DNA from: Candidatus Omnitrophota bacterium
GTDB taxonomy: Bacteria; Omnitrophota; Omnitrophia; Omnitrophales; Aquincolibacteriaceae
Assembly: GCA_041666865.1 (NCBI GenBank)
Contig: JBAYGD010000006.1
Coordinates: 20,390-84,389 of the forward strand
Direction of reading: 5' to 3'
Length of the DNA: 64,000 nucleotides
Part shown: positions 1-25,926 of the stretch, piece by piece
Layout: the number at the start of each line of letters is the position of its first letter
How positions within the stretch are numbered: position 1 is the stretch's first letter
Notes under the pieces: model-generated
The model's input: the letters and a program-made list of their open reading frames with translations, nothing else
What the model was told of the DNA's origin: nothing
Databases searched by the model: none
Made by a program: the position numbers and the translations under genes

Positions 1-2
1 AG

Positions 3-3408: not shown

Positions 3409-3779
3409 GCCATAAAATCATGCTTGTTGACGACGAAATCGACTGTCTGAGAATGATGAAATTGAATCTGGAAGCGGTCGGGGGCTATCATGTCCAGGTC
3501 GAGAGCCGGGCCGTCAAGGCACTCGAGACCGCCAGGACCTTCAAGCCCGATTTGATTTTCCTCGATCTCGTGATGCCCGAGATGGACGGTTCGGATGTGG
3601 CCTGTGCGCTCAAGGCGGACCCGCAGCTGGCCAAGATTCCGGTTGTTTTTCTGACCGCAACCGTGACCGAATCGGAAGTCTCCCAAACCGGACAGCGGAT
3701 CGGCGGCCAAGTATTTCTCGCAAAGCCCGTGACCGTCAAACAATTGACCGACTGCATTCAACAAATCCTGGGTGAGTAA
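3405..3779 (+). CDS. Stand-alone response regulator receiver (CheY-like, no output domain)
   Basis: 124 aa. IMLVDDE...DLIFLDLVMPEMDG...LAKPV receiver signature. ATGA overlap with the kinase stop. Confidence 0.9.
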   Translation: MSHKIMLVDDEIDCLRMMKLNLEAVGGYHVQVESRAVKALETARTFKPDLIFLDLVMPEMDGSDVACALKADPQLAKIPVVFLTATVTESEVSQTGQRIGGQVFLAKPVTVKQLTDCIQQILGE

Positions 3780-3784
3780 AAGCG

Positions 3785-5050
3785 ATGCCAAATTATCAAT
3801 ACCGGGCTAAAGACGGCCGCGGGAAAACCGTCGATGGGTTGATGGAAGCGGCCAGTGAGGGAGAAGCCGTCGAAAAAGTCAACCGGCTTGGGCTTCTTCC
3901 GGTCCGAGTCGAACTGACGGCGGCACCCGTCAAGCCCGAGCCGGTGCAGAAAAGCGAAACCGAAGAAAAGGCTCCGGCCCGCCCCGTTGCGCGCAAAGCG
4001 CCCGCGAAGGGCGGTCCGATCAAGAGCAAGGAGATCACGGCGTTTGGCAGACAGCTCTCGAGCCTGATCCGCTCGGGGGTCCCTATTCTCAAGGCCATCG
4101 GCATCATCAGTCAGCAGTCCGACAGCGCGGCGTTCAAAAAAATGCTCGATCAAATCTACGAGGACGTCAAAAACGGCGCTCCTTTTTCGGCGTCCCTCGG
4201 GAAGTTTCCCGGTTTATTCCCCCCTCTTTATACCGCGCTCGTTGCGGCCGGAGAATCCACCGGGAACCTGGATCAGTCTCTTCTGAGGGTCACCGAATAC
4301 AGGCAAAAACAGGAGGACATCGTTTCCCGCGTCCGGGCGGCCCTGATCTACCCGATGCTGATGGGCATCACGGGGCTCGGGACCATTATTTTCATGCTCA
4401 CTTTTGTCATGCCCAGGCTTTTGGGCATCTTTGCGCGCCTTGGGGGCGAGTTGCCCCTGCCGACGAGGATTCTGATCGGGACAAGCGATGCGCTCAGGCA
4501 GCCCTGGATCTGGGTTGGCGTCGCGGCGGCCGTTTTGGCCGGTGTGGTCTTGAGCCGTCAGAAAAATGAAAAGCACGCTCTGGCCCTGAGTCTTTTTGTT
4601 TTGGGGATCCCGCTTCTCGGGGACTTCGCCCTGAAAATAGAAATTGCGCGCTTTACGCGGACCATGGAGCTTTTGATCAAAAGCGGCATCTCCGTTCTTG
4701 CGGCGATCCGCACCACGGCGCCCGTGATCGCGAACCTGGTCCTGCGCAACGACCTCCTGAAGTGCCTGCAGGATATCAGCGAGGGCGGCTCGTTCGGCAG
4801 AAGCCTCCGGAGGTCGAAGCGTTTTCCGAGTTTCATGATCAATCTGATCAGCGTTGGTGAAGAATCGGGCAAGCTCGATGAATCGCTCGGAGAAATCGCG
4901 AATTTTTACGAGCGTGAAACCGACGAGGCGGTGCGCATTCTGACCTCGCTCCTGGAGCCTTTGATGATCCTCGGGATGGGCCTGGTGGTCGGCTTCATCG
5001 TTGTGGCGATGCTGCTTCCCATGTTCGAAATCAACATGATGGTGAAATAA
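3785..5050 (+). CDS. gspF: Type II secretion / type IV pilus platform protein GspF/PilC family
   Basis: 421 aa with two T2SSF repeats (LSSLIRSGVPILKAI ... LLIKSGISVLAAI) and three TM segments. Starts 5 nt after the receiver stop. Confidence 0.85.
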   Translation: MPNYQYRAKDGRGKTVDGLMEAASEGEAVEKVNRLGLLPVRVELTAAPVKPEPVQKSETEEKAPARPVARKAPAKGGPIKSKEITAFGRQLSSLIRSGVPILKAIGIISQQSDSAAFKKMLDQIYEDVKNGAPFSASLGKFPGLFPPLYTALVAAGESTGNLDQSLLRVTEYRQKQEDIVSRVRAALIYPMLMGITGLGTIIFMLTFVMPRLLGIFARLGGELPLPTRILIGTSDALRQPWIWVGVAAAVLAGVVLSRQKNEKHALALSLFVLGIPLLGDFALKIEIARFTRTMELLIKSGISVLAAIRTTAPVIANLVLRNDLLKCLQDISEGGSFGRSLRRSKRFPSFMINLISVGEESGKLDESLGEIANFYERETDEAVRILTSLLEPLMILGMGLVVGFIVVAMLLPMFEINMMVK

Positions 5051-5061
5051 ACGGACCGGCG

Positions 5062-5859
5062 ATGCTGAAACGATTGTTCCTCCAAGGGGCTTGTTTGGGG
5101 ATGGTGCTGGGTATTTTTTTAGGGGCGAAGGGAAGTCCTCCGACCTGGGAAGAATTGAAAGGCGACCATTTTATCGTCTATTACACCGGCGCGGGTGACT
5201 TTGCGAAGGACGTCCTGCGAAAGGCGGAGGAATGTTATTCCCGGGTCGGTGAAGATCTCGGATACGCTCGGCATTCGAAATTTTGGCAATGGGAAAAACG
5301 GGTTAAGATCTACATTTACAAAACCCACGAGGATTTCGTTCGCGGGACGGGCCGGCAGAAATGGTCGCACGGGTATGCCGATTATCATGCCAAAAAGATC
5401 TTCAGCTATGAGTGGAAAGAAGGATTTCTGGACGCCCTGTTGCCTCATGAAATTACGCATCTGATTTTCCGGGATTACGTCGGGTTCCGGGGCGAAGTTC
5501 CGGTTTGGCTCGACGAGGGGGTTGCGCAGTGGCAGGAGCCCGCCAAGCGGGGGGCTGTCCGGCAGCTCATGAAGTTTTATTTTTATGATGAAAAGGGGTA
5601 TTCGCTGAAAAACCTGACCGAGATCGACGTTCAGAACGTCAGAACGAAACTTGCCGTGGATCTTTTTTACACTCAGTCGGCCTCGGTCATCGATTTTCTG
5701 GTGACCAAGTACGGGGGCGACCGTTTTGTCGACTTTTGCCGTCAACTGCGGGACGGGAAAAAAATGGACGAGGCCCTGCCTTTCGCCTATCCGCTGCAGA
5801 TCCGCAATCTCAACGAACTGGAGGAGCAATGGAAACAGTACATTTTAAGCGCACCGTAA
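5062..5859 (+). CDS. Predicted zinc metallopeptidase, Peptidase_MA-like (HExxH ... E), signal/TM N-terminus
   Basis: HEITHLIF followed by WLDEGVAQWQE gives the gluzincin HExxH plus downstream Glu ligand. Hydrophobic N-terminus. Lies between gspF and gspG. Confidence 0.6.
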   Translation: MLKRLFLQGACLGMVLGIFLGAKGSPPTWEELKGDHFIVYYTGAGDFAKDVLRKAEECYSRVGEDLGYARHSKFWQWEKRVKIYIYKTHEDFVRGTGRQKWSHGYADYHAKKIFSYEWKEGFLDALLPHEITHLIFRDYVGFRGEVPVWLDEGVAQWQEPAKRGAVRQLMKFYFYDEKGYSLKNLTEIDVQNVRTKLAVDLFYTQSASVIDFLVTKYGGDRFVDFCRQLRDGKKMDEALPFAYPLQIRNLNELEEQWKQYILSAP

Positions 5860-6263
5860 ACCCGCAATCCGGCTTCACGCTGATCGAGCTGATGCTTGTC
5901 GTGATCATTATCGGCGCCCTGGTGGCGATGGTCCTCCCTCGCCTTGCGGGCCGCTCCGAACAGGCGAGGGTGCAGGCTGCTCAGGCGGATATCCGCTCGA
6001 ACATCGCCACGGCCTTGAAGCTTTACGAACTCGATAACGGGTCCTTTCCGCCCTCGGGGGAGGGGCTGAACGCGCTTTTCACGAAATCAGGGAACGCGCG
6101 AAACTGGAACGGGCCGTATTTGGAGAAAAGGCCGCTGGATCCCTGGGGCCACGACTATAAATACGACAGCCCGGGAACGCACCGCCCCGGGGATTACGAC
6201 CTGTCGTCGGCAGGCAAAGACGGGGCCGCCGGCACGACCGATGATATTACCAATTGGGATTAA
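5829..6263 (+). CDS. gspG: Major pseudopilin GspG (type II secretion)
   Basis: Track ORF 5736..6263 starts at TTG; trimmed to the ATG giving METVHFKRTVNPQSG/FTLIELMLVVIIIGAL (prepilin cleavage motif with Glu+5). GspG C-terminal signature NGPYLEK...PLDPWGHDYKY...DYDLSSAGKDG. Confidence 0.85.
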   Translation: METVHFKRTVNPQSGFTLIELMLVVIIIGALVAMVLPRLAGRSEQARVQAAQADIRSNIATALKLYELDNGSFPPSGEGLNALFTKSGNARNWNGPYLEKRPLDPWGHDYKYDSPGTHRPGDYDLSSAGKDGAAGTTDDITNWD

Positions 6264-6651
6264 AAAAAGGTCCCGCGGTTTTACCCTGATCGAGGTTCTG
6301 ATCACGGTCGCCGTTCTTTCGGTGGCAACCGTTTTCATCTCGCAGGGCAACCTCTTGAGCGGGGCCGTGTACGGGCGTTCCGTCAACCGCCTGGAAATGC
6401 AGAATTGGGCGGCCGAAAAGATCTGGAAAGTCAAAGAAGAGATTCTGGGCGCCGAATTCCCAGAAGTCGGGGCCTCGAGCGGTGCGGTGCAGGGAAAAAC
6501 CCGCGCCTACCGGTGGACCCTGGACGTCAAAGAGGAGCGCGAGAAGCTTTGCACGGCGTACGAGATTTCGCTTGCCGTGACGTGGCCCGAAGGCGGCGGC
6601 GAAGCCCTTGCCGAGCGTTATGGCGCGATCCTGAAGGTGAAAGGTAAATAA
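6241..6651 (+). CDS. Minor pseudopilin, GspI-like
   Basis: N-terminal RG/FTLIEVLITVAVLSV prepilin motif, 136 aa. Start codon uncertain: it overlaps the gspG end and an internal alternative start is possible. Confidence 0.65.
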   Translation: MILPIGIKKRSRGFTLIEVLITVAVLSVATVFISQGNLLSGAVYGRSVNRLEMQNWAAEKIWKVKEEILGAEFPEVGASSGAVQGKTRAYRWTLDVKEEREKLCTAYEISLAVTWPEGGGEALAERYGAILKVKGK

Positions 6652-6652
6652 C

Positions 6653-7252
6653 ATGCGCCGCTCCCGAGGGTTCACGCTGATCGAAGTGCTCCTCGTGGTT
6701 TCCCTGGCCGCGCTCATTGGCATGGCCGTCTACTCGATGTTCGCGAGCGCGGTCAATATGATGCACCGGATCAGCGATAATGCGCTGGACGAAGACGCGG
6801 ATATCTTCTTCGAAAAGGTGGACCGTGAGATTTCCTGCCAGGTTGTTTTTAAGGGGATTCCCTTCGAAGGGACGGCATCTTCCATGAGTTTCGCGGCCCC
6901 GATTGCTTTGAATCCGGAGAATCCCGCGGAGCGCGGAGTCGGACGAGTCCGGTACGATTTTGGGGGCTCGTCCCAGGGGTTCGTGAGGCGCCAGCAGAAC
7001 CTTCATCAGGTGTTCAAGACGATTGAGGGCGCGCCGGCGTCCCTGATGACAGCGGCAACGAGTCTTCGGTTTCAGTACTTTGTGTACCGGGAAAAGGACC
7101 AGCTCTACGAGTGGACGGAAGAGTGGAACTCTGCGGAGCAGGACGGACAACTGCCGGCCGCGGTCAGGCTCAAGCTCGAGTGTGCACGGGGAGAGGAGGC
7201 CAAAAAGTATGAGCGGACGATTGCTATCCCGATTGCGGGATCCACGCGGTAG
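6653..7252 (+). CDS. Minor pseudopilin, GspJ-like
   Basis: MRRSRG/FTLIEVLLVVSLAAL prepilin leader. 199 aa, the size typical for GspJ. Confidence 0.7.
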   Translation: MRRSRGFTLIEVLLVVSLAALIGMAVYSMFASAVNMMHRISDNALDEDADIFFEKVDREISCQVVFKGIPFEGTASSMSFAAPIALNPENPAERGVGRVRYDFGGSSQGFVRRQQNLHQVFKTIEGAPASLMTAATSLRFQYFVYREKDQLYEWTEEWNSAEQDGQLPAAVRLKLECARGEEAKKYERTIAIPIAGSTR

Positions 7253-8297
7253 TCTTCTGGTGCTCGCGCTCTGGATGATCGCGGTGGTGGCGATTCTTTC
7301 GGTTTCGATCAGCGAGTATGTCCGCCAGAAAATCGCCCTCTCGGACCGTCTGGACCGGAGGAACTGGCTGGCCGGGATCGCGGAAACGGGGGTCACGCGG
7401 GTGCTGTACAAGCTCCGCCAGAAAAAAGAAGCGGCTGAAGGATATCACGGTTTGAACGATACATATACCAGTGCGGCGGGCGACGTCCGGATGGGGGAAG
7501 GGGCTTTGGCTCTTTCGTATCCGGTGCGGAATCCGTGGACCGGCCAGATGCAGATGCGCTACGGCGTCGAGGACGAAGAGGGCCGATTCAACGTCAACGT
7601 CATCGACGGCAAGAGAATCGCCAAGTTTATCGAAGTGGTCGCCGAGGCGGAGGAGGATCAGGCGAAGGAAATCGCCTACGCGATCGTGGACTGGAGGGAC
7701 ACCAACGATTCCCTGTCTGACCCGAAGTTCGGCGCCGAAGACGATGACTACGAGGACCTGGACCCGCCTTATGAGGCCAAAGACCAGCCCTTCGAATCAC
7801 TCGACGAGCTTTTGCTCGTCCGGGGCATGACCCCAGAGATCTTCGAGCGGATTCAGCCTTTCGTGACGATCTACGGCCCCGGGACGGTCAACATCAACAC
7901 CGCTCCGATGGAAGTTTTGATGGGGCTTGGAATGTCCAAGGAGCTCGCAGGAAAGGTCGTGATGTACCGTGCGGGGCAGGACGGGGAGGAAGGGACCTCC
8001 GACGACCGCGTTTTTATGCAGGCGGCGAATGTTTCCACGGAACTGATGAAGAAGGTCAAGCTGGCCGGCGCGGAATCGACGATGGTCTCACAGATGGTCA
8101 GTAAGGGACAGCTGGGCGTCGACTCGACTCATTTCCGGATCCGAAGCCAGGGCAAAAGCATGCGGAAAAAGCAGATTCTCGAGATCGAAGCAGTCGCCGA
8201 CACCGACGGAGTGATCCTGTCCTGGTCGGTTTCGTCGCCGAGGCGCATGAGCGCGCCGGAGCTGTCTTTGGCTGCGACGGGTACGCAAGAGGGATGA
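7209..8297 (+). CDS. gspK: Minor pseudopilin GspK
   Basis: Track ORF 7080..8297 trimmed to MSGRLL...GSLLVLALWMIAVVAIL. The GTVNINTAP motif of the GspK helix-hairpin-helix region is present. Confidence 0.75.
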   Translation: MSGRLLSRLRDPRGSLLVLALWMIAVVAILSVSISEYVRQKIALSDRLDRRNWLAGIAETGVTRVLYKLRQKKEAAEGYHGLNDTYTSAAGDVRMGEGALALSYPVRNPWTGQMQMRYGVEDEEGRFNVNVIDGKRIAKFIEVVAEAEEDQAKEIAYAIVDWRDTNDSLSDPKFGAEDDDYEDLDPPYEAKDQPFESLDELLLVRGMTPEIFERIQPFVTIYGPGTVNINTAPMEVLMGLGMSKELAGKVVMYRAGQDGEEGTSDDRVFMQAANVSTELMKKVKLAGAESTMVSQMVSKGQLGVDSTHFRIRSQGKSMRKKQILEIEAVADTDGVILSWSVSSPRRMSAPELSLAATGTQEG

Positions 8298-8310
8298 AGG
8301 GAGGAGCGAC

Positions 8311-9786
8311 TTGAAACTGGTTTTCGGGTTTCCGAAGAACAAAAAAAAACCGGCGGTTCTCGCGGGAGAGGACTTGGTCTGCGTCAATCTCCAGGACCAG
8401 GAGGCCAAGGTCGCCGTTATCACTTCGAAATTGCAGGGCGACAGGCAGGTCAGCCAATTCTTGAGCTTCAGCGGCCAGGTCCCTTCCGCGGACGATCTGT
8501 CGGACCGTGTGTATGCCGCGCTCCAGCAGCTTCCTTTGAAAAATCCGAAGTTCGTCGGGGTGGTTTCCTCCAACCTCGTCGTGACCCGCAATATCGAAAT
8601 CCCGTCGCGCGATCCGGACGAAATTCGGGAAATCCTGAGCCTCCAGGCGTCCCGGCATACCCCTTACGCTCGCGACGAGATCATCATTGATTATATCAAT
8701 CTCGGAGTTTTCAAGAGCGTCTACACCAAAGTCCTTTTTATCATCGTCCCGAGGACGGTGGCCGCCCGCTACTATAATTTGGCCACCCGCCTCCGCTGGA
8801 GGATCGAGAAGATCGTTTTTATTTCGGAGGCGCTCGCCCGGTTTTTCTGCAAGCACCTGAACCTAGGGGGCGAACGCTTGCCGATTTGCATCCTGCAGGT
8901 GGATTCGACTGTCACCGAATTCGTCATCATGTTCCGGGGAGCCGCGCTCTTTGCCCGGAGCATTCCTGTTGGGGCCAAGCATTTTGCCGTGGCCAAGGAG
9001 GGGTATCAGGCCCGCTTTACCGAAGAGCTGAGGCGCTCCTTTGATACCTATCAGGGCGAGAATATCGACGCCATGCCCTCCCAAGTCCTGCTCACGGGCG
9101 CGATCCAGGGGCTCGACGACCTGAGTTTTACGATCGAGGATACGTTCCGTATGACGGTTAGACGGCTCACGGATCTCAACATGATTTCGATGGATGCCGA
9201 AGTCAAGGCGCAATGCGCGGGGCAGAATCTGGCGGTCCTTTCGGCGGCTGCGCCCGGGCTCCTCGTCGACGAACTGGCGGTGGATTTGAGCCCGGAGGAA
9301 AGCAGGCTCAAACGCCGCATGGAAGAAAGGTCGAAGGAGCTGATCAAAGCCGGCGTGCTCGGGATGGTGCTTCTGGGCCTTTTGTGCGTTTCGTTTGCGA
9401 GCCATATCTATCTGAAGACGGCACGGCTGGATCAGCTGACCAAGCGGTATGAGCCCATTCGCAAAGAAACGAAGTCGCTGGAAGAAACGTACGCCCGGGT
9501 CCGGGCGGTGAAGGGCCATTTGGCGGGGCGGGGGAAGGCCCTCAATTCCCTTGCCGAGCTTTGCTCGCTTCTTCCCAACGACATCTATCTGGCCGACATC
9601 AAATACGATACCGGCGGAAAAATGACGATCAAGGGGACCTCCTACACCAAGATTTCGATCTTCGGCTTGGTCGATAAAATGGGGAGCTCCAAGATTTTCA
9701 GGAATGTCCAAACCAAATATATTACCGGAAGGTCGGAAGAAGGCCTTGCTCTTTCCGATTTCGAAATCGCCACGACCGTGACCTGA
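8311..9786 (+). CDS. GspL-like inner-membrane assembly protein built as a PilM-like actin-fold cytoplasmic domain, a TM segment and a PilN-like periplasmic domain
   Basis: 491 aa. N-terminal ~330 aa are PilM/FtsA-like. The TM segment is LIKAGVLGMVLLGLLCVSF. The C-terminal domain is coiled-coil plus a PilN-like fold. Confidence 0.65.
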   Translation: MKLVFGFPKNKKKPAVLAGEDLVCVNLQDQEAKVAVITSKLQGDRQVSQFLSFSGQVPSADDLSDRVYAALQQLPLKNPKFVGVVSSNLVVTRNIEIPSRDPDEIREILSLQASRHTPYARDEIIIDYINLGVFKSVYTKVLFIIVPRTVAARYYNLATRLRWRIEKIVFISEALARFFCKHLNLGGERLPICILQVDSTVTEFVIMFRGAALFARSIPVGAKHFAVAKEGYQARFTEELRRSFDTYQGENIDAMPSQVLLTGAIQGLDDLSFTIEDTFRMTVRRLTDLNMISMDAEVKAQCAGQNLAVLSAAAPGLLVDELAVDLSPEESRLKRRMEERSKELIKAGVLGMVLLGLLCVSFASHIYLKTARLDQLTKRYEPIRKETKSLEETYARVRAVKGHLAGRGKALNSLAELCSLLPNDIYLADIKYDTGGKMTIKGTSYTKISIFGLVDKMGSSKIFRNVQTKYITGRSEEGLALSDFEIATTVT

Positions 9787-9795
9787 AAAGGAACC

Positions 9796-10362
9796 ATGAA
9801 GCTGATTGATTTCAATAAGCTGGCTGAGCATTATCAGCGCATGTCGAAGCGCGAAAAGCTGATTCTTATCGTGACGGCGACGTTTGTCGCCATCTTTCTC
9901 CTCGACCAGGTGATTATCGGCCCCGTTTACCGCACCCTGCGGTCGGTGGACCGCAAGATCATCGATTTGGAGGCCAATATCAAGCAAAGCATCCGCTTGC
10001 TCGGACAGAAGGAACAGATGATGAAGGAGGCCGAATACTACGCCGATTTTGCGCACTCGGCGAAATCCTCCGAGGAAGGGACGCTGGTCCTCCTCAAGCA
10101 CATCCAGGAAATTGCAAGCCAGGTTTCGGTCAATCTTCTCTATGTGAAGCCCGCCGGGGGAGGCCCTGAAAACAAGGAGTCGAACATTTACCGGGTCAAC
10201 CTGGAATGCGAAGGACAAATGGACCAGATCGTGAACTTTTTCTATGCGATCGAGAACTCGAAAATGCTGATGCAGCTCGAGAAGTTTTCCCTTCAACCGG
10301 TCGCCAAAGGGTCCAGCGTCATCCGCTGCAGTGCCACCGTGGCGCTGACCGGAGTGCCCTAG
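9796..10362 (+). CDS. GspM/PilO-like inner-membrane protein
   Basis: 188 aa. One N-terminal TM (LILIVTATFVAIFLL) followed by a coiled coil and a periplasmic alpha/beta domain. Sits directly after the GspL-like gene. Confidence 0.6.
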   Translation: MKLIDFNKLAEHYQRMSKREKLILIVTATFVAIFLLDQVIIGPVYRTLRSVDRKIIDLEANIKQSIRLLGQKEQMMKEAEYYADFAHSAKSSEEGTLVLLKHIQEIASQVSVNLLYVKPAGGGPENKESNIYRVNLECEGQMDQIVNFFYAIENSKMLMQLEKFSLQPVAKGSSVIRCSATVALTGVP

Positions 10363-10370
10363 CCCGAAGA

Positions 10371-11006
10371 TCAGGCCGCGGGCCGGTTCATGCGATTTTC
10401 GAGCGCGCGGGCAAGATCGTTCCTATTCATTTTCTTGAATTCTTCGATCTGGGCGGAAGCGGAGGCGCGGTCTCCTTGGCTTAGAAACGCTCCGACGAGG
10501 GCGACCCGAGCGTTATCCAGATACGCGTTGAGCTCGAGGGCTTTTTGGTAGGAGGCCACCGCTTCTTTGAGCTCCCCCAGAGAAGCGTAGGCGAGTCCGA
10601 GCTGATAGTGGGCGGCGAAACTGTCGGGATTGGCTTTGAGGGCTCCGAGGAAAGACGTCACGGCGTCCTTGGGCTCTTTACGGGCGGCGTGAATCAGGCC
10701 GAGCTGATAGAGCGGGGCATACTCTCCGGGCGCGGCCTCGAGCACCTGCTTGGCATAGGTCAGTGCCTGTTCGAGGTCGCCGGAGCGCGCGAAGCAAAGG
10801 CTCAGCAGGGATTTCACCCGGATGCTCCCGGGGTCGGCCTCGAGGGCTTTTTCGTATTGAATCAGGGCTTCGGGAATCTTTTTTTCGGCGACAAGCTTGT
10901 TCCCTTCGGTGATGTACGGTTCGGCATCGGCGGCGGAGGCCGGAGCTTTTGCCGCAAAGCAGAGGCAGGAGACGATGAGAATCGCGGTGAAAAGTCCGAG
11001 TTTCAT
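10371..11006 (-). CDS. TPR-repeat lipoprotein (PilF/PilW-like secretin pilotin candidate)
   Basis: Track ORF trimmed to MKLGLFTAILIVSC (signal peptide with LIVSC lipobox). At least 4 TPR units. Confidence 0.65.
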   Translation of the reverse strand: MKLGLFTAILIVSCLCFAAKAPASAADAEPYITEGNKLVAEKKIPEALIQYEKALEADPGSIRVKSLLSLCFARSGDLEQALTYAKQVLEAAPGEYAPLYQLGLIHAARKEPKDAVTSFLGALKANPDSFAAHYQLGLAYASLGELKEAVASYQKALELNAYLDNARVALVGAFLSQGDRASASAQIEEFKKMNRNDLARALENRMNRPAA

Positions 11007-11061
11007 GGGACGTCCTTTCAATGGGTGAAAAATGATAGCACACTTGGGAAGGGGTGTTAAG

Positions 11062-11433
11062 ATGAAAAACGTACAGGGACTCATTCTCATCCTGTTTTGT
11101 GTTTGTCTTTTTCCCTGTCAGCCGGCGGCGCGCGGGCAAGTTCAGGAGAAGGACGTGGAGCCTGCCGACATCGTCGAGAGCAAACCGGACGCAACGGATC
11201 CCGTCTATCTCCTGGTCACGACCAGGGACCGGCAGCATTTCCGGATCCCCAAGGACATGCAGTTGAAGAAAAAGGGGAATGTCTACTTTTTCGAGCCGAT
11301 GGAAAGCTACGTTTTCAAGCGGACGGTCGAGATGAAGGACGATGTCGACGCGATCAAGAAGCGGCTTGCCCTCATTGAGGAACGGCTCGGGATTATGCCG
11401 GAACAGGAAGATACGGACGCTAAAGCGGTTTGA
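11062..11433 (+). CDS. Small secreted hypothetical protein
   Basis: Track ORF 11032..11433 trimmed to MKNVQGLILILFCVCLF (signal peptide). GGAAGGGG RBS upstream. 123 aa. Confidence 0.5.
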   Translation: MKNVQGLILILFCVCLFPCQPAARGQVQEKDVEPADIVESKPDATDPVYLLVTTRDRQHFRIPKDMQLKKKGNVYFFEPMESYVFKRTVEMKDDVDAIKKRLALIEERLGIMPEQEDTDAKAV

Positions 11434-12937
11434 CGGCAGCGGCCGGGGCCGCCTGGTGAACCGGGATCTCAAAAATGAAACGTGCTCCTTTTCCTTCCTC
11501 GCTTTCCACCCACACCCGCCCGTGGTGCAGTTCCACGATTTCTTTGACGATCGAAAGCCCGAGGCCCGTGCCGCTAATTCCCTGAAGGCTGGGTGTGTCG
11601 AGCTGCACGAATTTCTCGAAGATCCTCGCGCAGTCTTTCTTGGCGATCCCGGGCCCCGTGTCCCGGATGCCGATGCGGACCGTTTTGGCTTGCGGGATCG
11701 CTTTGGCATCGATCGTGACCTTGCCTCCTTCTGGGGTGAACTTCAGGGCATTGCCGACCAGATTCGTCAGGACCTGCCCGATCCTGTCCTGATCCGCTTC
11801 GATCTCGAGAGGCTCCGGGAGGTCGAGCTCGATCGTCACTCCCTTGCTTTTGCCCCAGGCCGTAAATTCATGCGACAGGGAGCCGATGAATTCGTCGAGA
11901 CGGAACGGCGCCAAGCGGATCGAAAACTGCTTGGCCTCCAGCTTGGAGAGGTCCAGGAGGTCGTTGATCAGACGGGTCAGCCGGTTGATGTTATTGAGGG
12001 CGATGGTGGCGAACTTTTCCTGCTGGGGATTGAGCGCGCCGTTCGAGGGGTCGGCCAAAAGCCGCAGCGATCCCTGGATGCAGACCATCGGGGTCCTCAG
12101 GTCATGGGAAATATTGGAGAGGAAAGTCGATTTGAGCTGATCCAGCTCTTTTTGCTTGGTGACGTCGGAAAGCACCGAAACGAAGCCGACCGTTTTCCCG
12201 TCTTCGCTCTCGATGACGGCGTTGCTTGCGCGCAGGACCTTTTTGGTTTGGTCGCTCTGGCTCTGGATGACGATCTCTTTCTCTTTTCTGTCTCCGGCCT
12301 CCTGGGACAAGCTGATCAACTGCTCTTCCTTGAGATCGCTCATGATCGACTTGCCGATTTTGTCGTTTTTATTCACGCCGAGCAGTCTTTCGGCGGCGGG
12401 GTTCATGAGAATGACCTCGCCCTTCTTATTGACCATGATGACGCCCTCGGCCATGGAGCGGACGACCTCTTCGGTTTGCTTCTTCTCTTCCCCGAGCTCC
12501 TTGAAATTTGTGTCCAGCTTTTGATACTGTTCGCTGACGCTCTTGAACTGTTTTTCCACGAAGGCGATGGATTTTTCCTTTTCATCGAGCATGTGGCTGT
12601 AACGCGTGCTGATCTCCTCGGCCTTCACCTGGAGTTTTTTTTCCACTTCCTGCTCGATCGTGTGGCTGATCTTCTGCTTGAGGGCGCTGATCTGATGGGA
12701 GGGGCCGTGGAGGTATTTTTCGAGCTCGCCTTCGAGGGTGGGGGCGGGGGCACTCTCAAACTGTATTTTGGCGGCTTTTTGCTCGGCGGCGTGGCGTTTG
12801 GCGGCGTTATGGGCCAAGATGATTCCTGAACCCACCGCAAGAAGGATGATGACGAGAAAGCCTAGGACGACAGGTTCCAAAAAACCCCCTTTCCGCTCTC
12901 TTTTTTTGTTCTTTGGGACAAATCGCCTATTTGACAT
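11420..12937 (-). CDS. Sensor histidine kinase (TM, coiled coil, PAS, HisKA, HATPase_c)
   Basis: N-terminal TM helix. PAS region (MAEGVIMVNKKGEVILMNPAAERLLG). H-box SHDLRTP. G-boxes DTGPGI and GTGLGLSIVKEIV. Confidence 0.85.
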   Translation of the reverse strand: MSNRRFVPKNKKRERKGGFLEPVVLGFLVIILLAVGSGIILAHNAAKRHAAEQKAAKIQFESAPAPTLEGELEKYLHGPSHQISALKQKISHTIEQEVEKKLQVKAEEISTRYSHMLDEKEKSIAFVEKQFKSVSEQYQKLDTNFKELGEEKKQTEEVVRSMAEGVIMVNKKGEVILMNPAAERLLGVNKNDKIGKSIMSDLKEEQLISLSQEAGDRKEKEIVIQSQSDQTKKVLRASNAVIESEDGKTVGFVSVLSDVTKQKELDQLKSTFLSNISHDLRTPMVCIQGSLRLLADPSNGALNPQQEKFATIALNNINRLTRLINDLLDLSKLEAKQFSIRLAPFRLDEFIGSLSHEFTAWGKSKGVTIELDLPEPLEIEADQDRIGQVLTNLVGNALKFTPEGGKVTIDAKAIPQAKTVRIGIRDTGPGIAKKDCARIFEKFVQLDTPSLQGISGTGLGLSIVKEIVELHHGRVWVESEEGKGARFIFEIPVHQAAPAAAVKPL

Positions 12938-12940
12938 AGA

Positions 12941-12966
12941 GCACTTAAGGTAAATACTTTAAGTGC
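12941..12966. promoter_or_regulatory. Perfect 8-bp inverted repeat GCACTTAA-N10-TTAAGTGC in the divergent intergenic region, candidate operator
   Basis: Read directly in the 71-bp gap between the kinase start (12937, minus strand) and the HTH gene start (13009). A TATTAT -10-like hexamer lies at 12975-12980. Confidence 0.45.
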
Positions 12967-13008
12967 CGTAATTGTATTATAACAGAAATCCTTCGGAAGG
13001 GAAAAGCG

Positions 13009-13263
13009 ATGAATACCATGACGGCCGAGGTTTTGAGCGCGCAGGAAATTTGCGAAAAACTCGATATTCCGTATTCCAAAATCAATTATTACACGTACCT
13101 TGGTTTTTTCGAAATCGCCCGGAAGGTCGGCAATAAGCGGTTCTACGACGGCGAACAGGTGGAAAGCCGGTTCCGAGCGATCTCGCGGCTCATGAACGAG
13201 GGCTATCCGCTCTCGCTCATCCGCAAGAAACTGATCGGGGGGCGCGGCGATGGGCTACTATAA
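13009..13263 (+). CDS. Small MerR-family HTH DNA-binding protein without effector domain (BldC/excisionase-like)
   Basis: 84 aa. LSAQEICEKLDIPYSKINYYTYLGF matches the MerR-type [18 protein letters not shown]. Overlaps the downstream gene by 14 nt. Confidence 0.6.
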   Translation: MNTMTAEVLSAQEICEKLDIPYSKINYYTYLGFFEIARKVGNKRFYDGEQVESRFRAISRLMNEGYPLSLIRKKLIGGRGDGLL

Positions 13264-14113
13264 GGTTCTCGGTTTCCAGAAAGAGCCGTTTTCGACAAGC
13301 CCCGACCCCGATTTCTTTTACCTCTCAAAGGCGCATGATGCGGCCCTGACCAATATCCTGATCGAATTGCGGCTCAAGCGCGGTTTGGCCGTCATTTTAG
13401 GGGACGTCGGGACCGGCAAGACGACACTTTCCAGGAAGCTCATTCAGGAACTGAAAAGCCGCGAAGACTGCCTTTTCCACATGATTCTCGACCCTTCCTT
13501 CGACGATCCGCTCCTCTTGTTGAGCTATATCTCCAAGAACTTCGGGATCCCAGTGGGCCCGAACGCCTCGATTTTGTCGCTTCGGGAATCGCTCGAGCAA
13601 TTCCTCTTCGAAAAGGCCGTCGTCGAGGGTAAGACCGTGGCCCTGATCGTCGACGAGGCCCAGAAGCTGAGCGACTCCTCGCTCGAGAATCTCCGGGTCC
13701 TGCTGAACTATGAGACCAACGAGTTCAAAATGCTGCAGCTTGTCCTGCTCGGACAGCTGGAACTTCAGTCCAAGATCAAGGAGATCGCTAATTTCTTTGA
13801 CCGGATCAGCTACAAAGGCAAACTCGAAGCGCTGGACTTTTCCGAAATGAAAGAAATGATCTTTTTCCGGATCCGCCGGGCGGGTTATGACTCCGACATG
13901 AACCTTTTTCTGGACGAGGCTCTGCATGGGATCCATGAATCGACGGGCGGCCATCCCCGGCAGGTGACCATGCTTTGCCATCGGGCTCTGAAGTCTTTAT
14001 TGCTCAAGAACAAACTCGTCGTGGATTCGCAGATCATCGAAGAGTTGATAGAAGAGGATGCGAGGACGGGATGGCAGAGAACGAGCCTCTTACTCCAGAA
14101 AAACAGCTATTAA
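13250..14113 (+). CDS. GspA/ExeA-like AAA+ ATPase (type II secretion accessory)
   Basis: Walker A GDVGTGKTTL and Walker B IVDEAQ. ExeA/MshM family architecture. No C-terminal peptidoglycan-binding domain. Confidence 0.7.
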   Translation: MGYYKVLGFQKEPFSTSPDPDFFYLSKAHDAALTNILIELRLKRGLAVILGDVGTGKTTLSRKLIQELKSREDCLFHMILDPSFDDPLLLLSYISKNFGIPVGPNASILSLRESLEQFLFEKAVVEGKTVALIVDEAQKLSDSSLENLRVLLNYETNEFKMLQLVLLGQLELQSKIKEIANFFDRISYKGKLEALDFSEMKEMIFFRIRRAGYDSDMNLFLDEALHGIHESTGGHPRQVTMLCHRALKSLLLKNKLVVDSQIIEELIEEDARTGWQRTSLLLQKNSY

Positions 14114-14775
14114 AGCTCATTGAAAATCCGAAGCAAGCCTCCGTTAGGGCCGCAAGCGTCAAACGGGAGGGAAGGAAATGGTTTTCCCTCGGCGCGTTCA
14201 AAGGACGCCTGGATTTTTGGAAGAGTTTTTCGGTCCGAAAGCCGGCCGTGCAGAAAAGGACGGGAAAGGAAGCCAACCGCATCCGGCGGCTGAACGCGGT
14301 CCTTTGGGTCCTGCTCATTTTCATGGCGGGTTACACGGCCTACAGCCTTTGGGACATGACGACGGGGATCCGGAAGGCATCGAACCTCATTCTGAACCCG
14401 GACCGGAGCGTCGCGGAACCGAAGGAGCCGGAGATCCGGCTGCAAGACGTGGCTTTTTACCTGGAGAAGATCCGGAGTCGAAATATTTTCAATGCCGCGC
14501 CCCCGGAAGCGAAACCGGAGAGGAAAAAAGAGGACGGAGAGCCCGTGACGGACGAGAAGCCGCTCCAGGCCCAAGACGACGAAGCGACCAAGAATTTTTC
14601 GCTGGTGGGGATTGCGTGGTCGGACGATCCGGAAGCGATGATCGAAGACAAGGCGGCAAGCCGGACCCTCTTCGTAAGGCGCGGCCAGTCGCTTCCCAAC
14701 GGCGTGCGGGTGGTGACGATTTTCAAGGAAAAAATCATTTTGAGTTATAAAGGCAAGGAATTCGAACTCAGTTAA
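14071..14775 (+). CDS. GspB/GspC-like bitopic protein (cytoplasmic N-terminus, TM, Lys/Glu-rich linker, C-terminal secretin-binding HR-like domain; no PDZ)
   Basis: Track ORF trimmed to MAENEP (RBS GAGGACGGG). TM segment LNAVLWVLLIFMAGYTAYSLW. C-terminus FSLVGIAW...GVRVVTIFKEKIILSYKGKEFEL fits the GspC HR / PilP pattern. Confidence 0.55.
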   Translation: MAENEPLTPEKQLLKLIENPKQASVRAASVKREGRKWFSLGAFKGRLDFWKSFSVRKPAVQKRTGKEANRIRRLNAVLWVLLIFMAGYTAYSLWDMTTGIRKASNLILNPDRSVAEPKEPEIRLQDVAFYLEKIRSRNIFNAAPPEAKPERKKEDGEPVTDEKPLQAQDDEATKNFSLVGIAWSDDPEAMIEDKAASRTLFVRRGQSLPNGVRVVTIFKEKIILSYKGKEFELS

Positions 14776-14794
14776 CGTTTGAGAGGCCCGGAAA

Positions 14795-16597
14795 ATGAAA
14801 CGGCTCGGCCGGAGTGCGATCAAGGGTGCGTGGGTGACGCTTCTCGCCGTCTGCCTCAGCCTCGGGGGCGTGAGCGGTTTTGCGGCTGATGAACCGGCGC
14901 CTGACGGAAACGCCGAAGGCCAGGGGGATGGAGCGATTCAGCCGCCGGATCTGAGCGACGAAACGCCCGTCAAGGAGATCGATGTGACCGAAGGCCGGAT
15001 CTCGTTGGACCTGCGCAACATCGAGGTCTCCGAGGCCCTCCGTTTTCTGGCGACCCGCGGCAAGCTTAACCTTGTGATCAGCAAGACCGTTGCGGGACGG
15101 ATTTTTCTTGTTTTGAACAATGTTCCCGTCATGGACGCCTTCGACATCATCCTCCTCAGCAATGCTCTCGCCTACGATAAACAAGGTGAGATCTACCAGA
15201 TCATGACGGACCAGGAATACAAAACGAAGTACGGCAGGGATTTTTCGGACCCCCGGACGGTCCGCATCTACCGGCTCCAATACGCCCTGCCGGAGCGCGT
15301 TTTTGCCGCGGTCGAGGCCCTCAAGAGCGAAATCGGCCGCGTTCTCGTGGACCAGGAATCCGGAACCGTGTTCGTCATGGACACAGCGGAGAAGATCGCC
15401 GAGATCGACAAGGTCGTCGACATCCTCGAGCAGAAAAGGATCGTCCGGGCTTTTCCGCTCCAGTACGCGAAAGTCAAAGACATCGAAGACCGGCTGAAGG
15501 CCCAGCTGGATAGTAAGGGCGTCGGCACGGTTCAGTCCGACGAACGAACCAATCAGCTGATCGTGCAGACCTACCCGGAGCGCCTCAAGCAAATCGAAGA
15601 GCTCATCGCTTCGCTGGACAAAAAAACGAAGGAAGTCCTCATCGTCTCCAAGATCATTCGTGTGACGCTTGCCGATGATTTTCATGCCGAAATCAAGTGG
15701 GAAGGCATGTTCCAAGGGCTGCTCCGTGACGGGAGTTTTATCGGCAACCACGAGCTCGATCCCGTGAACCGGGGGCTGATCGGGCAAAGCTATCTCGACG
15801 ATTACTATAAAGTGGACATTGACAAGACGGAACGGATGATCGCGGGCCCCAAGAGCACGCTTTTGGAAAACCTGGTCATCGGCCAAAAGCTCGACGACAA
15901 GACGTTTGAAACGCTGATCAACTTTTTGCGGACGATCGGCGAGACGCGGGTGCTGGCAAGCCCGAGGATCATGGTGGTCAATAACCAGGAAGCCAAGATC
16001 CACGTCGGCGAACGCCAGGCGTATATTACGAGCACGACCACGACCGGAAGTTCGACGGCGACCACCGCCGAAGAAGTCAACTTCATCGACGTCGGGATCG
16101 AGCTTGCCGTCACGCCGACGATCAACGACAACGGTTACGTCAGCATGAAGATCAAGCCGGTCATTTCGACCGTCAAAGAGTTTTTGCAAACAGCCTCGGG
16201 CAACAAGATTCCGATCGTGGACACTTCTGAAGCCGAGACCAGCGTCATGGTCAAGGACGGGACGACGATCGTGATCGCGGGACTTCGCCGGGACGAGTGG
16301 CAGATCAACGACGATCAGGTTCCCTTTTTGGGGGACGTGCCGATCCTCGGCCGGCTTTTTAAATCGAATTCTAAAAGCAAAAGACGGACCGAGGTCCTAG
16401 TGATCCTTACGCCGACCATCACGGGCGGCGAAAAGTTCGACATGGGCGAGCCGACCTCCCTTGACTATGATATGAAGAGCTACCGGGAGTATTCGGACCT
16501 CAAGCTGGAAGGGGAAAAGCCTGAGGCCGTCCCGCCGGGCCAACCCGGATTTTTCAACCGCGTTCTCAAAAAGATGCACGTTCCTGCCCATGATTAG
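14795..16597 (+). CDS. gspD: Secretin (GspD/PilQ family)
   Basis: Signal peptide, N0/N1-like domains and a C-terminal secretin domain (VLASPRIMVVNNQEAKIHVG ... VPFLGDVPILGRLF ... VLVILTPTI). Confidence 0.85.
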   Translation: MKRLGRSAIKGAWVTLLAVCLSLGGVSGFAADEPAPDGNAEGQGDGAIQPPDLSDETPVKEIDVTEGRISLDLRNIEVSEALRFLATRGKLNLVISKTVAGRIFLVLNNVPVMDAFDIILLSNALAYDKQGEIYQIMTDQEYKTKYGRDFSDPRTVRIYRLQYALPERVFAAVEALKSEIGRVLVDQESGTVFVMDTAEKIAEIDKVVDILEQKRIVRAFPLQYAKVKDIEDRLKAQLDSKGVGTVQSDERTNQLIVQTYPERLKQIEELIASLDKKTKEVLIVSKIIRVTLADDFHAEIKWEGMFQGLLRDGSFIGNHELDPVNRGLIGQSYLDDYYKVDIDKTERMIAGPKSTLLENLVIGQKLDDKTFETLINFLRTIGETRVLASPRIMVVNNQEAKIHVGERQAYITSTTTTGSSTATTAEEVNFIDVGIELAVTPTINDNGYVSMKIKPVISTVKEFLQTASGNKIPIVDTSEAETSVMVKDGTTIVIAGLRRDEWQINDDQVPFLGDVPILGRLFKSNSKSKRRTEVLVILTPTITGGEKFDMGEPTSLDYDMKSYREYSDLKLEGEKPEAVPPGQPGFFNRVLKKMHVPAHD

Positions 16598-17561
16598 ATT
16601 CCTTCTCTTTCTCAAACGCCGGGCTTGGCCGATCGCTTTTTCGATCCTGCTGTGTGGGGCGGTCCTTCTCGGGACTCTTTTCTACTGGTTTCCGTTTCAG
16701 GGGGCAAAAGCGCACTCGGTCATGATGGAGCACAAGGTCAGCAAGCTCAAAGAGGAGAGGGAGAGCCTTCAGAAGTTCTACGAAACCCTGAAACAGAAAT
16801 TCCAGGAGCTTGAGGCGGACCGCGACAACGTGCTCGTGCAGACCCGGCAGCTCCTCGGCGAGCGCGAAAAGTACGAGCAGTCCGTGGTCGAGCTCAATGC
16901 GGTGAAGGAAAAACAAAAAACGCTCACCGAAACGAATGCGGTTGTGACCGAGAAAATGACGGCTGCGGAAACGAAGGTCGCGGAGCTGCAGTCGAGCTAC
17001 GACGCTGCCCGGGCCGAGGCCGAATCCTCAAAGGCCAAGCTTGAGCGAACGACCCGCGAGAACGTCGAACTGGCCACGCGGTCTCAAAACACCGAAGCGG
17101 TCATCAATCAATATAAGCAAAAGGCGGAAGAAAACGAAAAATACAGCCCTCTTTTCAACTCCCTGAGCGTGGAGCACGAAGTGCTCAAGGAAAAATACAA
17201 GGCGCTCGAAGCGCGGCTCGGGGACATCCCCGGACAATTCTCTGAAATGGCCAAGGAAAACCAGGTTTTGATCCACGAGACGGCCGACATGCATTACAAT
17301 TTGGGGGTTTTTTACGCCAAGGAAAGGAATTATGAGCGCGCCCTCAAGGAGTTCCAGAAGGCCGTGGATATTGATCCGGGAGACGCCAAGGCCCATTATA
17401 ATCTCGGCTATATCTATGCCGACCACATGCAGGACAGGGCCCGGGCCGAGCTTCACTTCAAGACGTTCCTAGAGCTGGCCCCGGATGACCCCAACTCGGA
17501 CGCCGTCCGGAACTACATTATCAGCCGGGATGTTTTTAGCGCAAAAGTGTTGAAATCCTGA
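16590..17561 (+). CDS. Membrane-anchored coiled-coil plus TPR protein
   Basis: N-terminal TM segment, ~200 aa of heptad-rich coiled coil, and C-terminal TPRs (HYNLGVFYAKERNYERALKEFQKAVDIDP...). Overlaps the secretin stop by 8 nt. Confidence 0.6.
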   Translation: MIRFLLFLKRRAWPIAFSILLCGAVLLGTLFYWFPFQGAKAHSVMMEHKVSKLKEERESLQKFYETLKQKFQELEADRDNVLVQTRQLLGEREKYEQSVVELNAVKEKQKTLTETNAVVTEKMTAAETKVAELQSSYDAARAEAESSKAKLERTTRENVELATRSQNTEAVINQYKQKAEENEKYSPLFNSLSVEHEVLKEKYKALEARLGDIPGQFSEMAKENQVLIHETADMHYNLGVFYAKERNYERALKEFQKAVDIDPGDAKAHYNLGYIYADHMQDRARAELHFKTFLELAPDDPNSDAVRNYIISRDVFSAKVLKS

Positions 17562-17617: not shown

Positions 17618-18370
17618 ATGAAAAAGGTCAGTCTACTTGTTTTGGCGGTTTTGTTTTTGAGCACTCAACTCTTGGGATTCTTGCCTGTGGCTTGTGCGCA
17701 ATCCGAAGGTGGGAAACCGTCCCCGGTTGCCCCTAAAATCTCGAAACAAGACGAAGAAGCGAGGGCTGCCCTGCGGAAAAAGATTCTGGAGAAGAAGGAC
17801 GAACTCAACGGGTCCGAGTGGGCCGTCGAGATCAAGTCGCGCTCCGCCAAAGGCGATTTTGCCGGGGAAGACACGCTGACCTTCCAGAACGATAAATTCC
17901 GCTCCGGGAAAACGGAAAAAAGCGGGTACACCGCAACCAATTATACCTTGACGGTTTCGGAGGAGGAAAACGGACCGACGGTATGGGAAACGATGCAGAC
18001 GTCGGCGAACGGGGAAATTACCTTCTGGCGCGGGGAGTGGAAGGATGATGTGATGACGGGCGTGATCAGCCGCCAGCTCAAAGAGGAGAAGGGCGTCGAG
18101 GAGTATTATTTTTCAAGCTCCTTGAAAAAAGAGATCCCCAAGACCACCGAGGAAACCGAAGAGCCAGCGGCTCCTGTGGCCTCCGAGGCCAAATCGGCGG
18201 CCTCGCCGATCCTGAGCAGCACGGCGGCCACCGCAGATTTAGGCAGCGCTGCCATAGAGAAGACGGGCGAAAAGATAGAAGAAAAGAAGACGGTAGCGGT
18301 GAGTGCCGAAGAGAAGAAGTTGGAAGAGAAAAAGGCTGCGGAAAAGAAGAAATCAGCCTGGCTCTTTTAG
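17618..18370 (+). CDS. Secreted hypothetical protein with Lys/Glu-rich C-terminal tail
   Basis: Signal peptide MKKVSLLVLAVLFLSTQLLGFLPVACAQS. C-terminal EKKxxEKK repeats. Last gene before the terminator. Confidence 0.55.
   Translation: MKKVSLLVLAVLFLSTQLLGFLPVACAQSEGGKPSPVAPKISKQDEEARAALRKKILEKKDELNGSEWAVEIKSRSAKGDFAGEDTLTFQNDKFRSGKTEKSGYTATNYTLTVSEEENGPTVWETMQTSANGEITFWRGEWKDDVMTGVISRQLKEEKGVEEYYFSSSLKKEIPKTTEETEEPAAPVASEAKSAASPILSSTAATADLGSAAIEKTGEKIEEKKTVAVSAEEKKLEEKKAAEKKKSAWLF

Positions 18371-24726: not shown

Positions 24727-25926
<1,200 letters not shown>

Follow-up and report, generated by a model that had tools for sequence, protein, structure and literature searches.

The 64-kb window analysed here, a 64,000-nt stretch of DNA from a Candidatus Omnitrophota bacterium, carries a locus related to type II secretion systems (T2SS) that is arranged as two neighbouring gene units. 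We found that this locus belongs to a type IV filament machine that is complete, includes a motor ATPase of its own and is conserved across Candidatus Omnitrophota, and we place very high confidence in this finding. With moderate confidence we further propose that the machine is a T2SS-like pseudopilus system, probably gated by cyclic di-GMP (c-di-GMP). An initial annotation made from the window had described an atypical hybrid locus, split into two units, with a PilM/PilN-type protein in the position of GspL and with no motor ATPase, GspH or prepilin peptidase nearby.

Exact protein matches put the window on the 122,380-bp ENA metagenome contig ERZ27249449:k141_1160274, of which it constitutes bases 21676-85675, and the upstream flank was read there. 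Two flanking stretches of the window's own contig are cited below as L001 and L086; a window position equals the L001 position minus 6596, or the L086 position minus 9733. Family calls were made with Pfam and NCBIfam hidden Markov models (HMMs) run on the window proteins, with scores judged against the model cut-offs. The motor gene was found immediately outside the window, on the same strand as the rest of the locus: it encodes a 730-aa ATPase composed of MshEN, T2SSE and C-terminal PilZ domains (L001 4315-6507, +; called by family models on the flank sequence) and ends 90 nt before window base 1. The protein carries a Walker A motif (GPTGSGKS) and tetra-Cys motifs, and scored 599 bits against the NCBIfam model for GspE (TIGR02533, cut-off 630) versus 567 bits against that for PilB (cut-off 676). 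Motif scans of all six frames for Walker A, pilin, prepilin peptidase (PilD, GxGD) and PilT signatures, covering the window plus 9.7 kb upstream (73.7 kb in total), returned one single T2SSE-family Walker A, located upstream of the window, and none within the window itself. The earlier statement that no GspE/PilB-type ATPase lies nearby is therefore true of the window but false of the locus. Of the two genes that the initial annotation had named as telling against it if found just beyond the window ends, gspE is present, and no gspO was found in the window or the 9.7 kb upstream of it. Unit 1 starts upstream of the window, the "missing" motor is a window-boundary artefact, and the locus is an unusual variant rather than a motor-less hybrid. 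For genome scanning in general, a core gene that appears to be missing at the edge of a window calls for a check of the flanks before its absence is treated as biology.

The gene string around the window edge runs, on one strand, from a 158-aa MshEN-only protein through the ATPase, a stand-alone PilZ protein, a histidine kinase and a response regulator to gspF. The PilZ gene (117 aa; L001 6509-6862, +) starts 87 nt before the window, so that its 3′ end occupies positions 1..266, and it encodes RNYRR and DFSAGG motifs. Pfam matches and synteny show that the following gene (268..3408, +), an insert separating gspE from gspF, encodes a CHASE-PAS-PAS-GAF histidine kinase; it overlaps by 4 nt a gene for a single-domain response regulator (3405..3779, +; Pfam). 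This kinase insert is variable among relatives, being absent from locus L004 and replaced by another kinase in L005.

A scan of species-representative genomes yielded 145 related loci (n=145), of which 80 were kept and compared by tblastn with the window proteins. The 80 kept loci are nearly all titled Omnitrophota, and NCBI names the nearest homologues of several window proteins "Candidatus Omnitrophota bacterium"; likewise the PilM-PilN protein described below has 75 detectable homologue clusters, and all source-named matches among them are Omnitrophota or Omnitrophica. Restricting the count to kept loci with at least 8.5 kb of upstream sequence (n=51), the ATPase is encoded upstream in 47 of 51, where it normally adjoins gspF, and atpD lies upstream of the ATPase in 43 of these 47. 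The gap between GspE and GspF genes is shorter than 110 nt in all measured pairs with the exception of L005, which has a two-component insert as in the window; a few further loci have no measurable pair, with GspF undetected or located elsewhere. The metallopeptidase gene that follows gspF here is present in 60 of the 62 loci able to show it. The conserved order is atpG-atpD-(MshEN)-gspE-gspF-pepMA-G-I-J-K-PilMN-M, within which G-I-J-K-PilMN-M is essentially invariant. These data bear directly on the alternative that an ATPase-less, split T2SS/type IV pilus hybrid must rely on a motor, a GspH and a prepilin peptidase encoded elsewhere. Such a hybrid would agree with the PilM/PilN-type L protein and with the lack of a T2SSE Walker A, GspH and PilD within the window, but we regard it as very improbable in view of the dedicated ATPase 90 nt upstream, which shares the strand and stands in a nearly gap-free string, and of its upstream position in 47 of 51 relatives.

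All genes that had been listed for the two units were recovered at their coordinates and with the family signals first assigned to them. In unit 1, gspF (3785..5050, +) encodes a GspF/PilC platform protein with a Pfam T2SSF score of 212 bits, and scored 361 bits against the NCBIfam GspF model versus 284 bits against PilC. It is followed by the gene for a gluzincin zinc metallopeptidase with an HEITH motif (5062..5859, +; Pfam Peptidase_MA_2), which lies between gspF and gspG and overlaps the latter by 31 nt. The major pseudopilin GspG (5829..6263, +; 144 aa) has the prepilin site G/FTLIE and scored 136 bits against the equivalog model TIGR01710, above its cut-off of 88.85; it is the sole candidate major subunit. 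Three minor pseudopilins follow. The first is GspI-like (6241..6651, +; N_methyl match, GspI 30.9 bits, below cut-off), the second GspJ-like (6653..7252, +; Pfam T2SSJ 37.6 bits, cut-off 28), and the third is GspK (7209..8297, +), with a Pfam T2SSK_1st match and 129 bits against NF037980 (cut-off 130); GspK lacks Glu5, has the N-terminus G/SLLVL and retains the T2SSK alpha-domain. After the gene in the GspL position (8311..9786, +), the unit closes with a GspM/PilO-like bitopic platform protein (9796..10362, +) that has a transmembrane (TM) segment at residues 23-41 and a conserved position, with all of its model scores below cut-off (NF040576 GspM_XpsM 35.5 bits, cut-off 60; Pfam T2SSM 24.6 bits and PilO 17.4 bits).

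The product of 8311..9786 was matched by the HMMs PilM_2, PilN and TIGR01175 and by none of the GspL models in Pfam or NCBIfam, the outcome that the initial annotation had named as deciding against its PilM/PilN assignment thus failing to appear. A family profile built from 16 sequences matched, among PDB chains, only PilM (Myxococcus xanthus at 78.6 bits, as well as Pseudomonas aeruginosa and Thermus thermophilus) and no EpsL/GspL chain. An AlphaFold model (predicted local distance difference test, pLDDT, 84) consists of an actin-like domain, a long helix spanning residues 329-420 and a ferredoxin-like PilN domain. The actin-like domain comprises about 300 residues (about 20-320), and its best fold match is PilM (5eou; E 7e-19, TM-score 0.71 on the target), with the cytoplasmic domains of GspL as weaker matches (E about 1e-8 versus about 1e-19 for PilM). 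A TM segment at residues 344-362 is predicted inside the long helix, followed by a periplasmic coiled coil. Directly before this segment the family has an invariant D325/L326/E329/E330 (motif VDLSPEE), presumably reminiscent of the N-terminal PilN peptide that binds PilM. We rejected a canonical GspL identity for this protein, as it has no GspL match by HMM or against PDB sequences and weaker fold matches only. HMMs, profile and predicted fold independently agree on a PilM/PilN-type protein, as first annotated, and together they indicate an end-to-end PilM-PilN fusion that would be GspL by architecture and PilM/PilN by sequence. PulL/GspL is generally viewed as corresponding to a PilM-PilN fusion, and T2SS and the mannose-sensitive haemagglutinin (MSHA) pilus as derivatives of the type IVa pilus (T4aP) via loss of PilT (Pelicic 2023, PMC10191384); it is on the former ground that the fused protein is counted as GspL by architecture. 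The combination of T2SS-type G/I/J/K pseudopilins with a PilM/PilN-type platform protein was upheld, and the label "hybrid" that had been attached to it overstates the case for the same two reasons.

Between the GspM gene and the MerR-type gene that heads unit 2 lies a 2.65-kb stretch with two minus-strand genes. The first of these (10371..11006, -), convergent with gspM, encodes a TPR lipoprotein with the lipobox IVSC that reached 45.6 bits against PilW and 37 bits against Tgl, both below the NCBIfam cut-offs. It follows gspM in the close relatives as well as in about a dozen loci of greater distance, and we consider it a candidate pilotin for the secretin, of the PilF/PilW/Tgl type. The second (11420..12937, -; Pfam) encodes a PAS histidine kinase that is kept together with unit 2 in close relatives. 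A small exported protein encoded between them (11062..11433, +) was detected in only nine of the compared loci, and its membership of the system is uncertain. The antisense stretch does not behave as a foreign insert: it is kept together with the locus and begins with the gene for the pilotin-type lipoprotein.

Unit 2 is preceded by a sigma-70-like promoter match (TTGACA-16-AATACT, 12931..12958, +; a consensus match only) and opens with a gene for a MerR-type helix-turn-helix protein (13009..13263, +; Pfam MerR_1) that is kept in L004-L009, L011, L062 and L090. Next is a 287-aa cytoplasmic AAA_22 ATPase of the ExeA(GspA)/MshM type (13250..14113, +), with 75 bits in Pfam and a sub-cut-off 181 bits against TIGR03015; the protein contains neither a TM segment nor a peptidoglycan-binding domain. 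The following gene (14071..14775, +; start inferred) encodes a bitopic GspB/GspC/PilP-like protein with a TM segment and a C-terminal homology region (HR)-type domain, for which Pfam T2SSC gave 31.1 bits (cut-off 27), T2SSB 24 bits and GspC_delta 43.8 bits (cut-off 150); no PDZ domain was found on it. The secretin (14795..16597, +; Pfam 167 bits) is made up of an N0-like region, two Secretin_N domains and the secretin domain, and carries no AMIN domain by Pfam. Its NCBIfam scores were 255 bits for PilQ (cut-off 284), 244.5 bits for GspD (cut-off 351) and 177 bits for MshL (cut-off 250). Behind it, in an MshN-like position, is the gene for an N-terminally anchored protein with a coiled coil and TPR-model matches (16590..17561, +), found after the secretin in L004-L009, L011, L089 and L090 and 2.8 kb downstream of the secretin in L062. 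The last gene of unit 2 (17618..18370, +) encodes a conserved, exported 250-aa protein with no family match. Because this conserved gene precedes a strong intrinsic terminator (18405..18436, +; a 14-bp stem with 11 GC pairs, and a T-run), the unit ends at 18370 and not at 17561. A homologue of the 250-aa protein lies at L088 3142-3711, between a giant gene and ATPase genes, which suggests that the protein belongs to a larger apparatus.

The two-unit layout was confirmed as real by the synteny comparison and is conserved in relatives. Units 1 and 2 are adjacent in L004-L009, L011 and L090; unit 2, a stable module, stands directly upstream of K-L-M in L062 and was found alone in L089. The secretin unit lies within 10 kb downstream in 7 of 47 loci and is nearby only in the closest relatives. 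Scanning metagenomes with the secretin returned only two loci, namely L089 with its lone unit 2 and L090 with the layout of the window. A distant locus, L091 (98-9657, on a Logan contig of SRR12594517), has the contiguous order F-G-H-like-I-J-K-PilMN-M-AAA_22-x-secretin. It resembles the window locus in its gene order and family hits, but differs in being one operon, in its extra GspH/ComGD-like pseudopilin, in having neither the MA peptidase nor the antisense stretch, and in a PilMN protein only 22% identical. Because the two units are adjacent in close relatives, stand beside K-L-M in L062 and are contiguous in L091, comparative gene order indicates that they form one system, and that their separation is the normal state in the phylum. 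The same family hits in L091, a locus that is not a member of the family, indicate that the PilMN-type T2SS-like architecture extends beyond Omnitrophota.

With regard to components that were not found, the window holds only four genes with class-III signal peptides in the six-frame motif scan, none of them GspH; relatives have no fourth minor pseudopilin either, and GspH is missing from every Omnitrophota locus inspected. The reported absence of GspH was thus borne out and proved to be conserved. Since the distant L091 carries a GspH/ComGD-like gene, a lineage-specific loss of GspH in Omnitrophota is suggested. A prepilin peptidase is likewise absent as annotated, with no GxGD motif in the window or in the 9.7 kb upstream and no PilD signature in the ±10 kb Pfam tables with which the flanks of relatives were screened. 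Its local absence, taken initially as atypical, is ordinary, however, as TFFscan models treat the prepilin peptidase as a "loner" gene (Denise 2019, PMC6668835). For the retraction ATPase PilT, no AIRNLIRE motif was present in the 73.7 kb and no match in the relatives' Pfam tables; no PilA-like pilin, PilY1 or PilU was found in the 73.7 kb or in the flanks of relatives. Sub-cut-off scores of several components and the missing GspH could also be read as signs of a decaying or non-functional remnant cluster. We consider this extremely improbable: all open reading frames (ORFs) are intact, catalytic and ligand-binding motifs are invariant, and the loci of 145 species-level genomes agree in gene order and content, even where PilMN identity falls to about 31%.

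Taken together, sequence comparison places the locus in the T4aP/T2SS/MSHA lineage of type IV filaments and, by gene content, closest to T2SS. It shares with T2SS the order E-F-G-(I-J-K)-L-M, a GspG equivalog, the GspK alpha-domain, an HR protein of the GspB/C type, a secretin, an L protein that spans the membrane once and has a cytoplasmic actin-like domain, a TM segment and a periplasmic ferredoxin-like domain, and the lack of a retraction ATPase nearby. It differs from T2SS in that L is a full-size PilM joined to a full PilN, that GspH, GspN and a local GspO are lacking and the GspC-like protein has no PDZ domain, that the ATPase bears a C-terminal PilZ domain and a zinc peptidase gene sits between F and G, and that the secretin module forms a separate transcription unit and, in most relatives, a separate locus. 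On these profiles the locus does not qualify for full T2SS membership, because GspH is missing and GspL is non-canonical.

The principal competing explanation is a true T4aP used for attachment to, and movement on, a host or prey, with the retraction ATPase encoded elsewhere or dispensable. The likeness to the T4aP of P. aeruginosa, M. xanthus and T. thermophilus extends to PilM and PilN by sequence and fold, a PilO-like partner and a PilP/HR-like protein (both weak matches), a secretin whose PilQ score is at least as high as its GspD score, a pilotin-like TPR lipoprotein and a PilB-like ATPase with an N-terminal MshEN/N1 domain; against PDB chains the ATPase scored slightly higher on PilB than on GspE structures (434 versus 404 bits at best). 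Published TXSScan-based calls and the expression of a T4aP reported for V. archaeovorus, both in the searched text of Seymour 2023 (PMC10066038), point the same way. However, the fusion of PilM with PilN sets the locus apart from T4aP, the major subunit passes the GspG equivalog cut-off with only 144 aa, GspK has the T2SS alpha-domain and a GspB/C-type protein is present; there is no PilA-like pilin, PilY1, PilT or PilU in the 73.7 kb or the flanks of relatives, the secretin lacks AMIN, and GspF outscores PilC (361 versus 284 bits). We therefore regard a T4aP as unlikely, although it is the alternative to be taken most seriously.

An adhesive, non-retractile, c-di-GMP-activated relative of the MSHA pilus was also considered. 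As in the Vibrio cluster (mshHIJKLMNEGF...), an MshM-like AAA_22 gene and an MshN-like TPR gene flank the secretin, the ATPase has an MshEN domain in the company of further c-di-GMP modules, PilT is absent and the organisation approaches a single locus. Of the MSHA set, the locus has genes resembling E, G(F), L(secretin) and M(AAA_22), and no MshA-type pilin by the Pfam and NCBIfam models used; the TFFscan model of MSH treats mshM as mandatory (PMC6668835). The pilins are Gsp-type and not Msh-type, however, the gene order is another one, the secretin scored 177 bits for MshL versus 255 for PilQ and 244.5 for GspD, and the MshEN motif of the ATPase itself is degenerate in all 120 homologues checked. 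In addition, the AAA_22 and GspB-like pair is also known from T2SS, as ExeA/ExeB (GspA/GspB) of Aeromonas and Vibrio. The window locus resembles ExeA/ExeB in having an AAA_22 gene followed by a gene for a bitopic protein with a C-terminal T2SSB/T2SSC match, directly upstream of the secretin, and differs in that its AAA+ protein, like MshM, is without the TM segment and peptidoglycan-binding domain of ExeA. An MSHA-type identity appears improbable to us. Overall, T2SS is suggested by the pilin set, the GspF score and the absence of PilT, PilA and PilY1, T4aP by PilMN and the TPR lipoprotein, and MSHA by the MshM-like and TPR genes.

The T2SS-like pseudopilus that we favour would be regulated through several c-di-GMP modules. 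The ATPase's own MshEN domain scored 16 bits against the c-di-GMP motif model NF053729 (cut-off 38), and the motif is kept in none of 120 homologues, whereas its fused C-terminal PilZ domain has both RxxxR and [DN]xSxxG in 118 of 120. The stand-alone upstream MshEN protein passed the same NF053729 cut-off of 38 with 60 bits, and the stand-alone PilZ protein is canonical by its motifs. From these motifs, c-di-GMP sensing appears to have moved from the ATPase's own MshEN domain to the fused PilZ domain and a separate MshEN protein. Among relatives, two-component and PilZ/response-regulator inserts differ by lineage, lying at the E-F, the F-peptidase or the peptidase-G junction (L088 13442-20268, L013, L016, L027, L028, L057, L066); regulatory modules appear to have been gained repeatedly and independently. 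A search with Rfam at the gathering threshold, for riboswitches such as the c-di-GMP type, found only two tRNAs in the window and L086.

The MA-family peptidase encoded between gspF and gspG has a single N-terminal hydrophobic helix, which may be a signal-anchor or a signal peptide. Its homologues listed share 46-65% identity, with the HExxH motif and the downstream Glu invariant; the invariant residues of the family are H129, E130, H133 and E152. The predicted structure (pLDDT 89.8) has a gluzincin fold whose nearest relatives are the peptidase domains of M9 collagenases. The peptidase, which would face the periplasm, could either serve the machine in processing or quality control or be its cognate cargo. 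The T2SS-beta cluster of E. coli, which encodes the metalloprotease SslE, provides a precedent for such a peptidase as cargo or factor.

Extrapolating from the well-studied T2SS and T4aP homologues of the components described above, we propose the following mode of action. A hexameric GspE/PilB-type ATPase would dock on the PilM-like domain of the fusion and on GspF, and ATP hydrolysis would drive GspF to add GspG subunits beneath a GspI-J-K tip. The periplasmic PilN-like and GspM/PilO-like domains, together with the GspB/C-like HR protein, would join this platform to the secretin, which the ExeA/MshM-like AAA+ protein, together with the TPR lipoprotein and the coiled-coil TPR protein, would help to place in the outer membrane. 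The resulting short pseudopilus would push cargo, or itself, through the secretin; we favour such a non-retractile pseudopilus over a twitching pilus because the vicinity encodes no retraction ATPase and a bona fide GspG serves as the major subunit. Activity would probably be gated by c-di-GMP via the ATPase-fused PilZ domain, the stand-alone PilZ protein and the stand-alone MshEN protein, all three being predicted receptors, and local two-component systems may supply further input. Several points weigh against this interpretation. It is the gene set that decides here between T2SS and pilus, as the ATPase, the secretin and the GspM/PilO-like protein score about equally for both, below trusted cut-offs, and are not separated by profiles. 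Both the platform protein and the candidate pilotin resemble those of T4aP; PilT or PilD may be encoded elsewhere in the genome, outside the 73.7 kb; and GspH, the link between tip and fibre in canonical T2SS, is missing. TXSScan-based labelling in the searched text of Seymour et al. 2023 (PMC10066038) also assigns such loci to T4aP.

Upstream of the MshEN gene, in the L086 1-6885 region, lies a set of F1-like ATPase genes encoding epsilon (82 aa), a c-like protein (76 aa), a b-delta fusion (244 aa), alpha, gamma and beta subunits. Genes upstream of the motor ATPase are separated by gaps of at most 93 nt, several overlap by 4 nt, and the F1-like set ends 4 nt into the MshEN gene. The c-like hairpin scored 24.4 bits against ATP-synt_C; no a-subunit gene was seen adjacent to the set, and the beta subunit reached 450-480 bits with canonical F1 beta as against 324 bits with Mycoplasma G1 beta. 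The c-like subunit here is without the Glu of helix 2 (FGTSIAV), which is kept in the relatives L087 and L088 (FAEALAI/FAESLAI). The idea that this neighbour is an ordinary ATP synthase is weakened by the lack of an a subunit, the divergent beta subunit and, in this contig, the loss of the c-subunit Glu, although relatives keep that residue.

Further upstream, the same string includes a giant ORF whose product, at least 4606 aa long, has a TM anchor at its C-terminus, and two relatives with this string have giant ORFs of 6721 aa and at least 2890 aa (L086 1-1879, L087 1-4122 and L088 1-3125). In L086 and L087, the end of the ORF and the ATPase genes are 2-100 nt apart, and in L088 orf189 and orf274 lie between. 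The last approximately 200 residues, including the TM anchor, form a conserved module that is a separate 274-aa gene (orf274) in L088. A T2SS-like cluster beside giant genes in West-Roberts et al. 2023 was considered as a counterpart and proved to be different, being Tad-like (rcpC, Rotamase_2).

The association of the filament cluster with a divergent F-type ATPase has been noted before. According to the searched text of Seymour 2023 (PMC10066038), in all Omnitrophota classes an F-type ATPase described as non-respiratory and "symbiotic" is co-located with "T4aP" clusters, with the two systems at most 10 kb apart in 57 of 66 contigs by TXSScan. Those loci share with ours the Omnitrophota origin and a filament cluster directly downstream of the divergent F-type ATPase; our locus is an instance of this co-location as it is described in that text, and in this respect was partly anticipated in the literature. 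The same searched text holds no mention of Gsp-type pseudopilins, a PilMN fusion, a PilZ-fused ATPase, an MA peptidase or an adjacent giant gene. One could go further and imagine that the T2SS-like genes, instead of being a stand-alone secretion system, constitute one apparatus with the giant, C-terminally anchored surface protein, the membrane-anchored F1-like ATPase and the c-di-GMP modules, all encoded in a long string on one strand, in which the pseudopilus, with the MA peptidase, would deploy or process the giant protein in attachment to a host or prey, and to which the rotary ATPase would be coupled. We regard this as a speculative and rather unlikely reading.

Ordinary housekeeping genes make up the rest of the window. 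The locus terminator is followed by an Hsp20 gene (18453-18908, -), and further along are tRNA-Thr (24573-24645), a gene for an EF-Tu-type GTPase (GHVDHGKT, 24727-25926), tRNA-Trp (26151-26225) and very long ORFs at the positions of rpoB/rpoC (29215-37124).

Omnitrophota are abundant, uncultured and ultra-small bacteria that are thought to live as predators or symbionts. The locus described here is among the most conserved envelope machines of the phylum. Its PilM-PilN fusion with Gsp-type pseudopilins, no GspH and an MshM-like factor make it the intermediate kind of system that is expected between T4aP, T2SS and MSHA; were the single-apparatus reading true, the union of a PilM-PilN fusion with T2SS pseudopilins would represent a living intermediate of the transition from T4aP to T2SS. 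If the machine is indeed a c-di-GMP-gated T2SS-like exporter and not a twitching pilus, the published "T4aP" trait of Omnitrophota, which has been used as an argument for host attachment, would need to be re-read, and the machine would be a candidate route for the export of lytic enzymes or the deployment of giant surface proteins.

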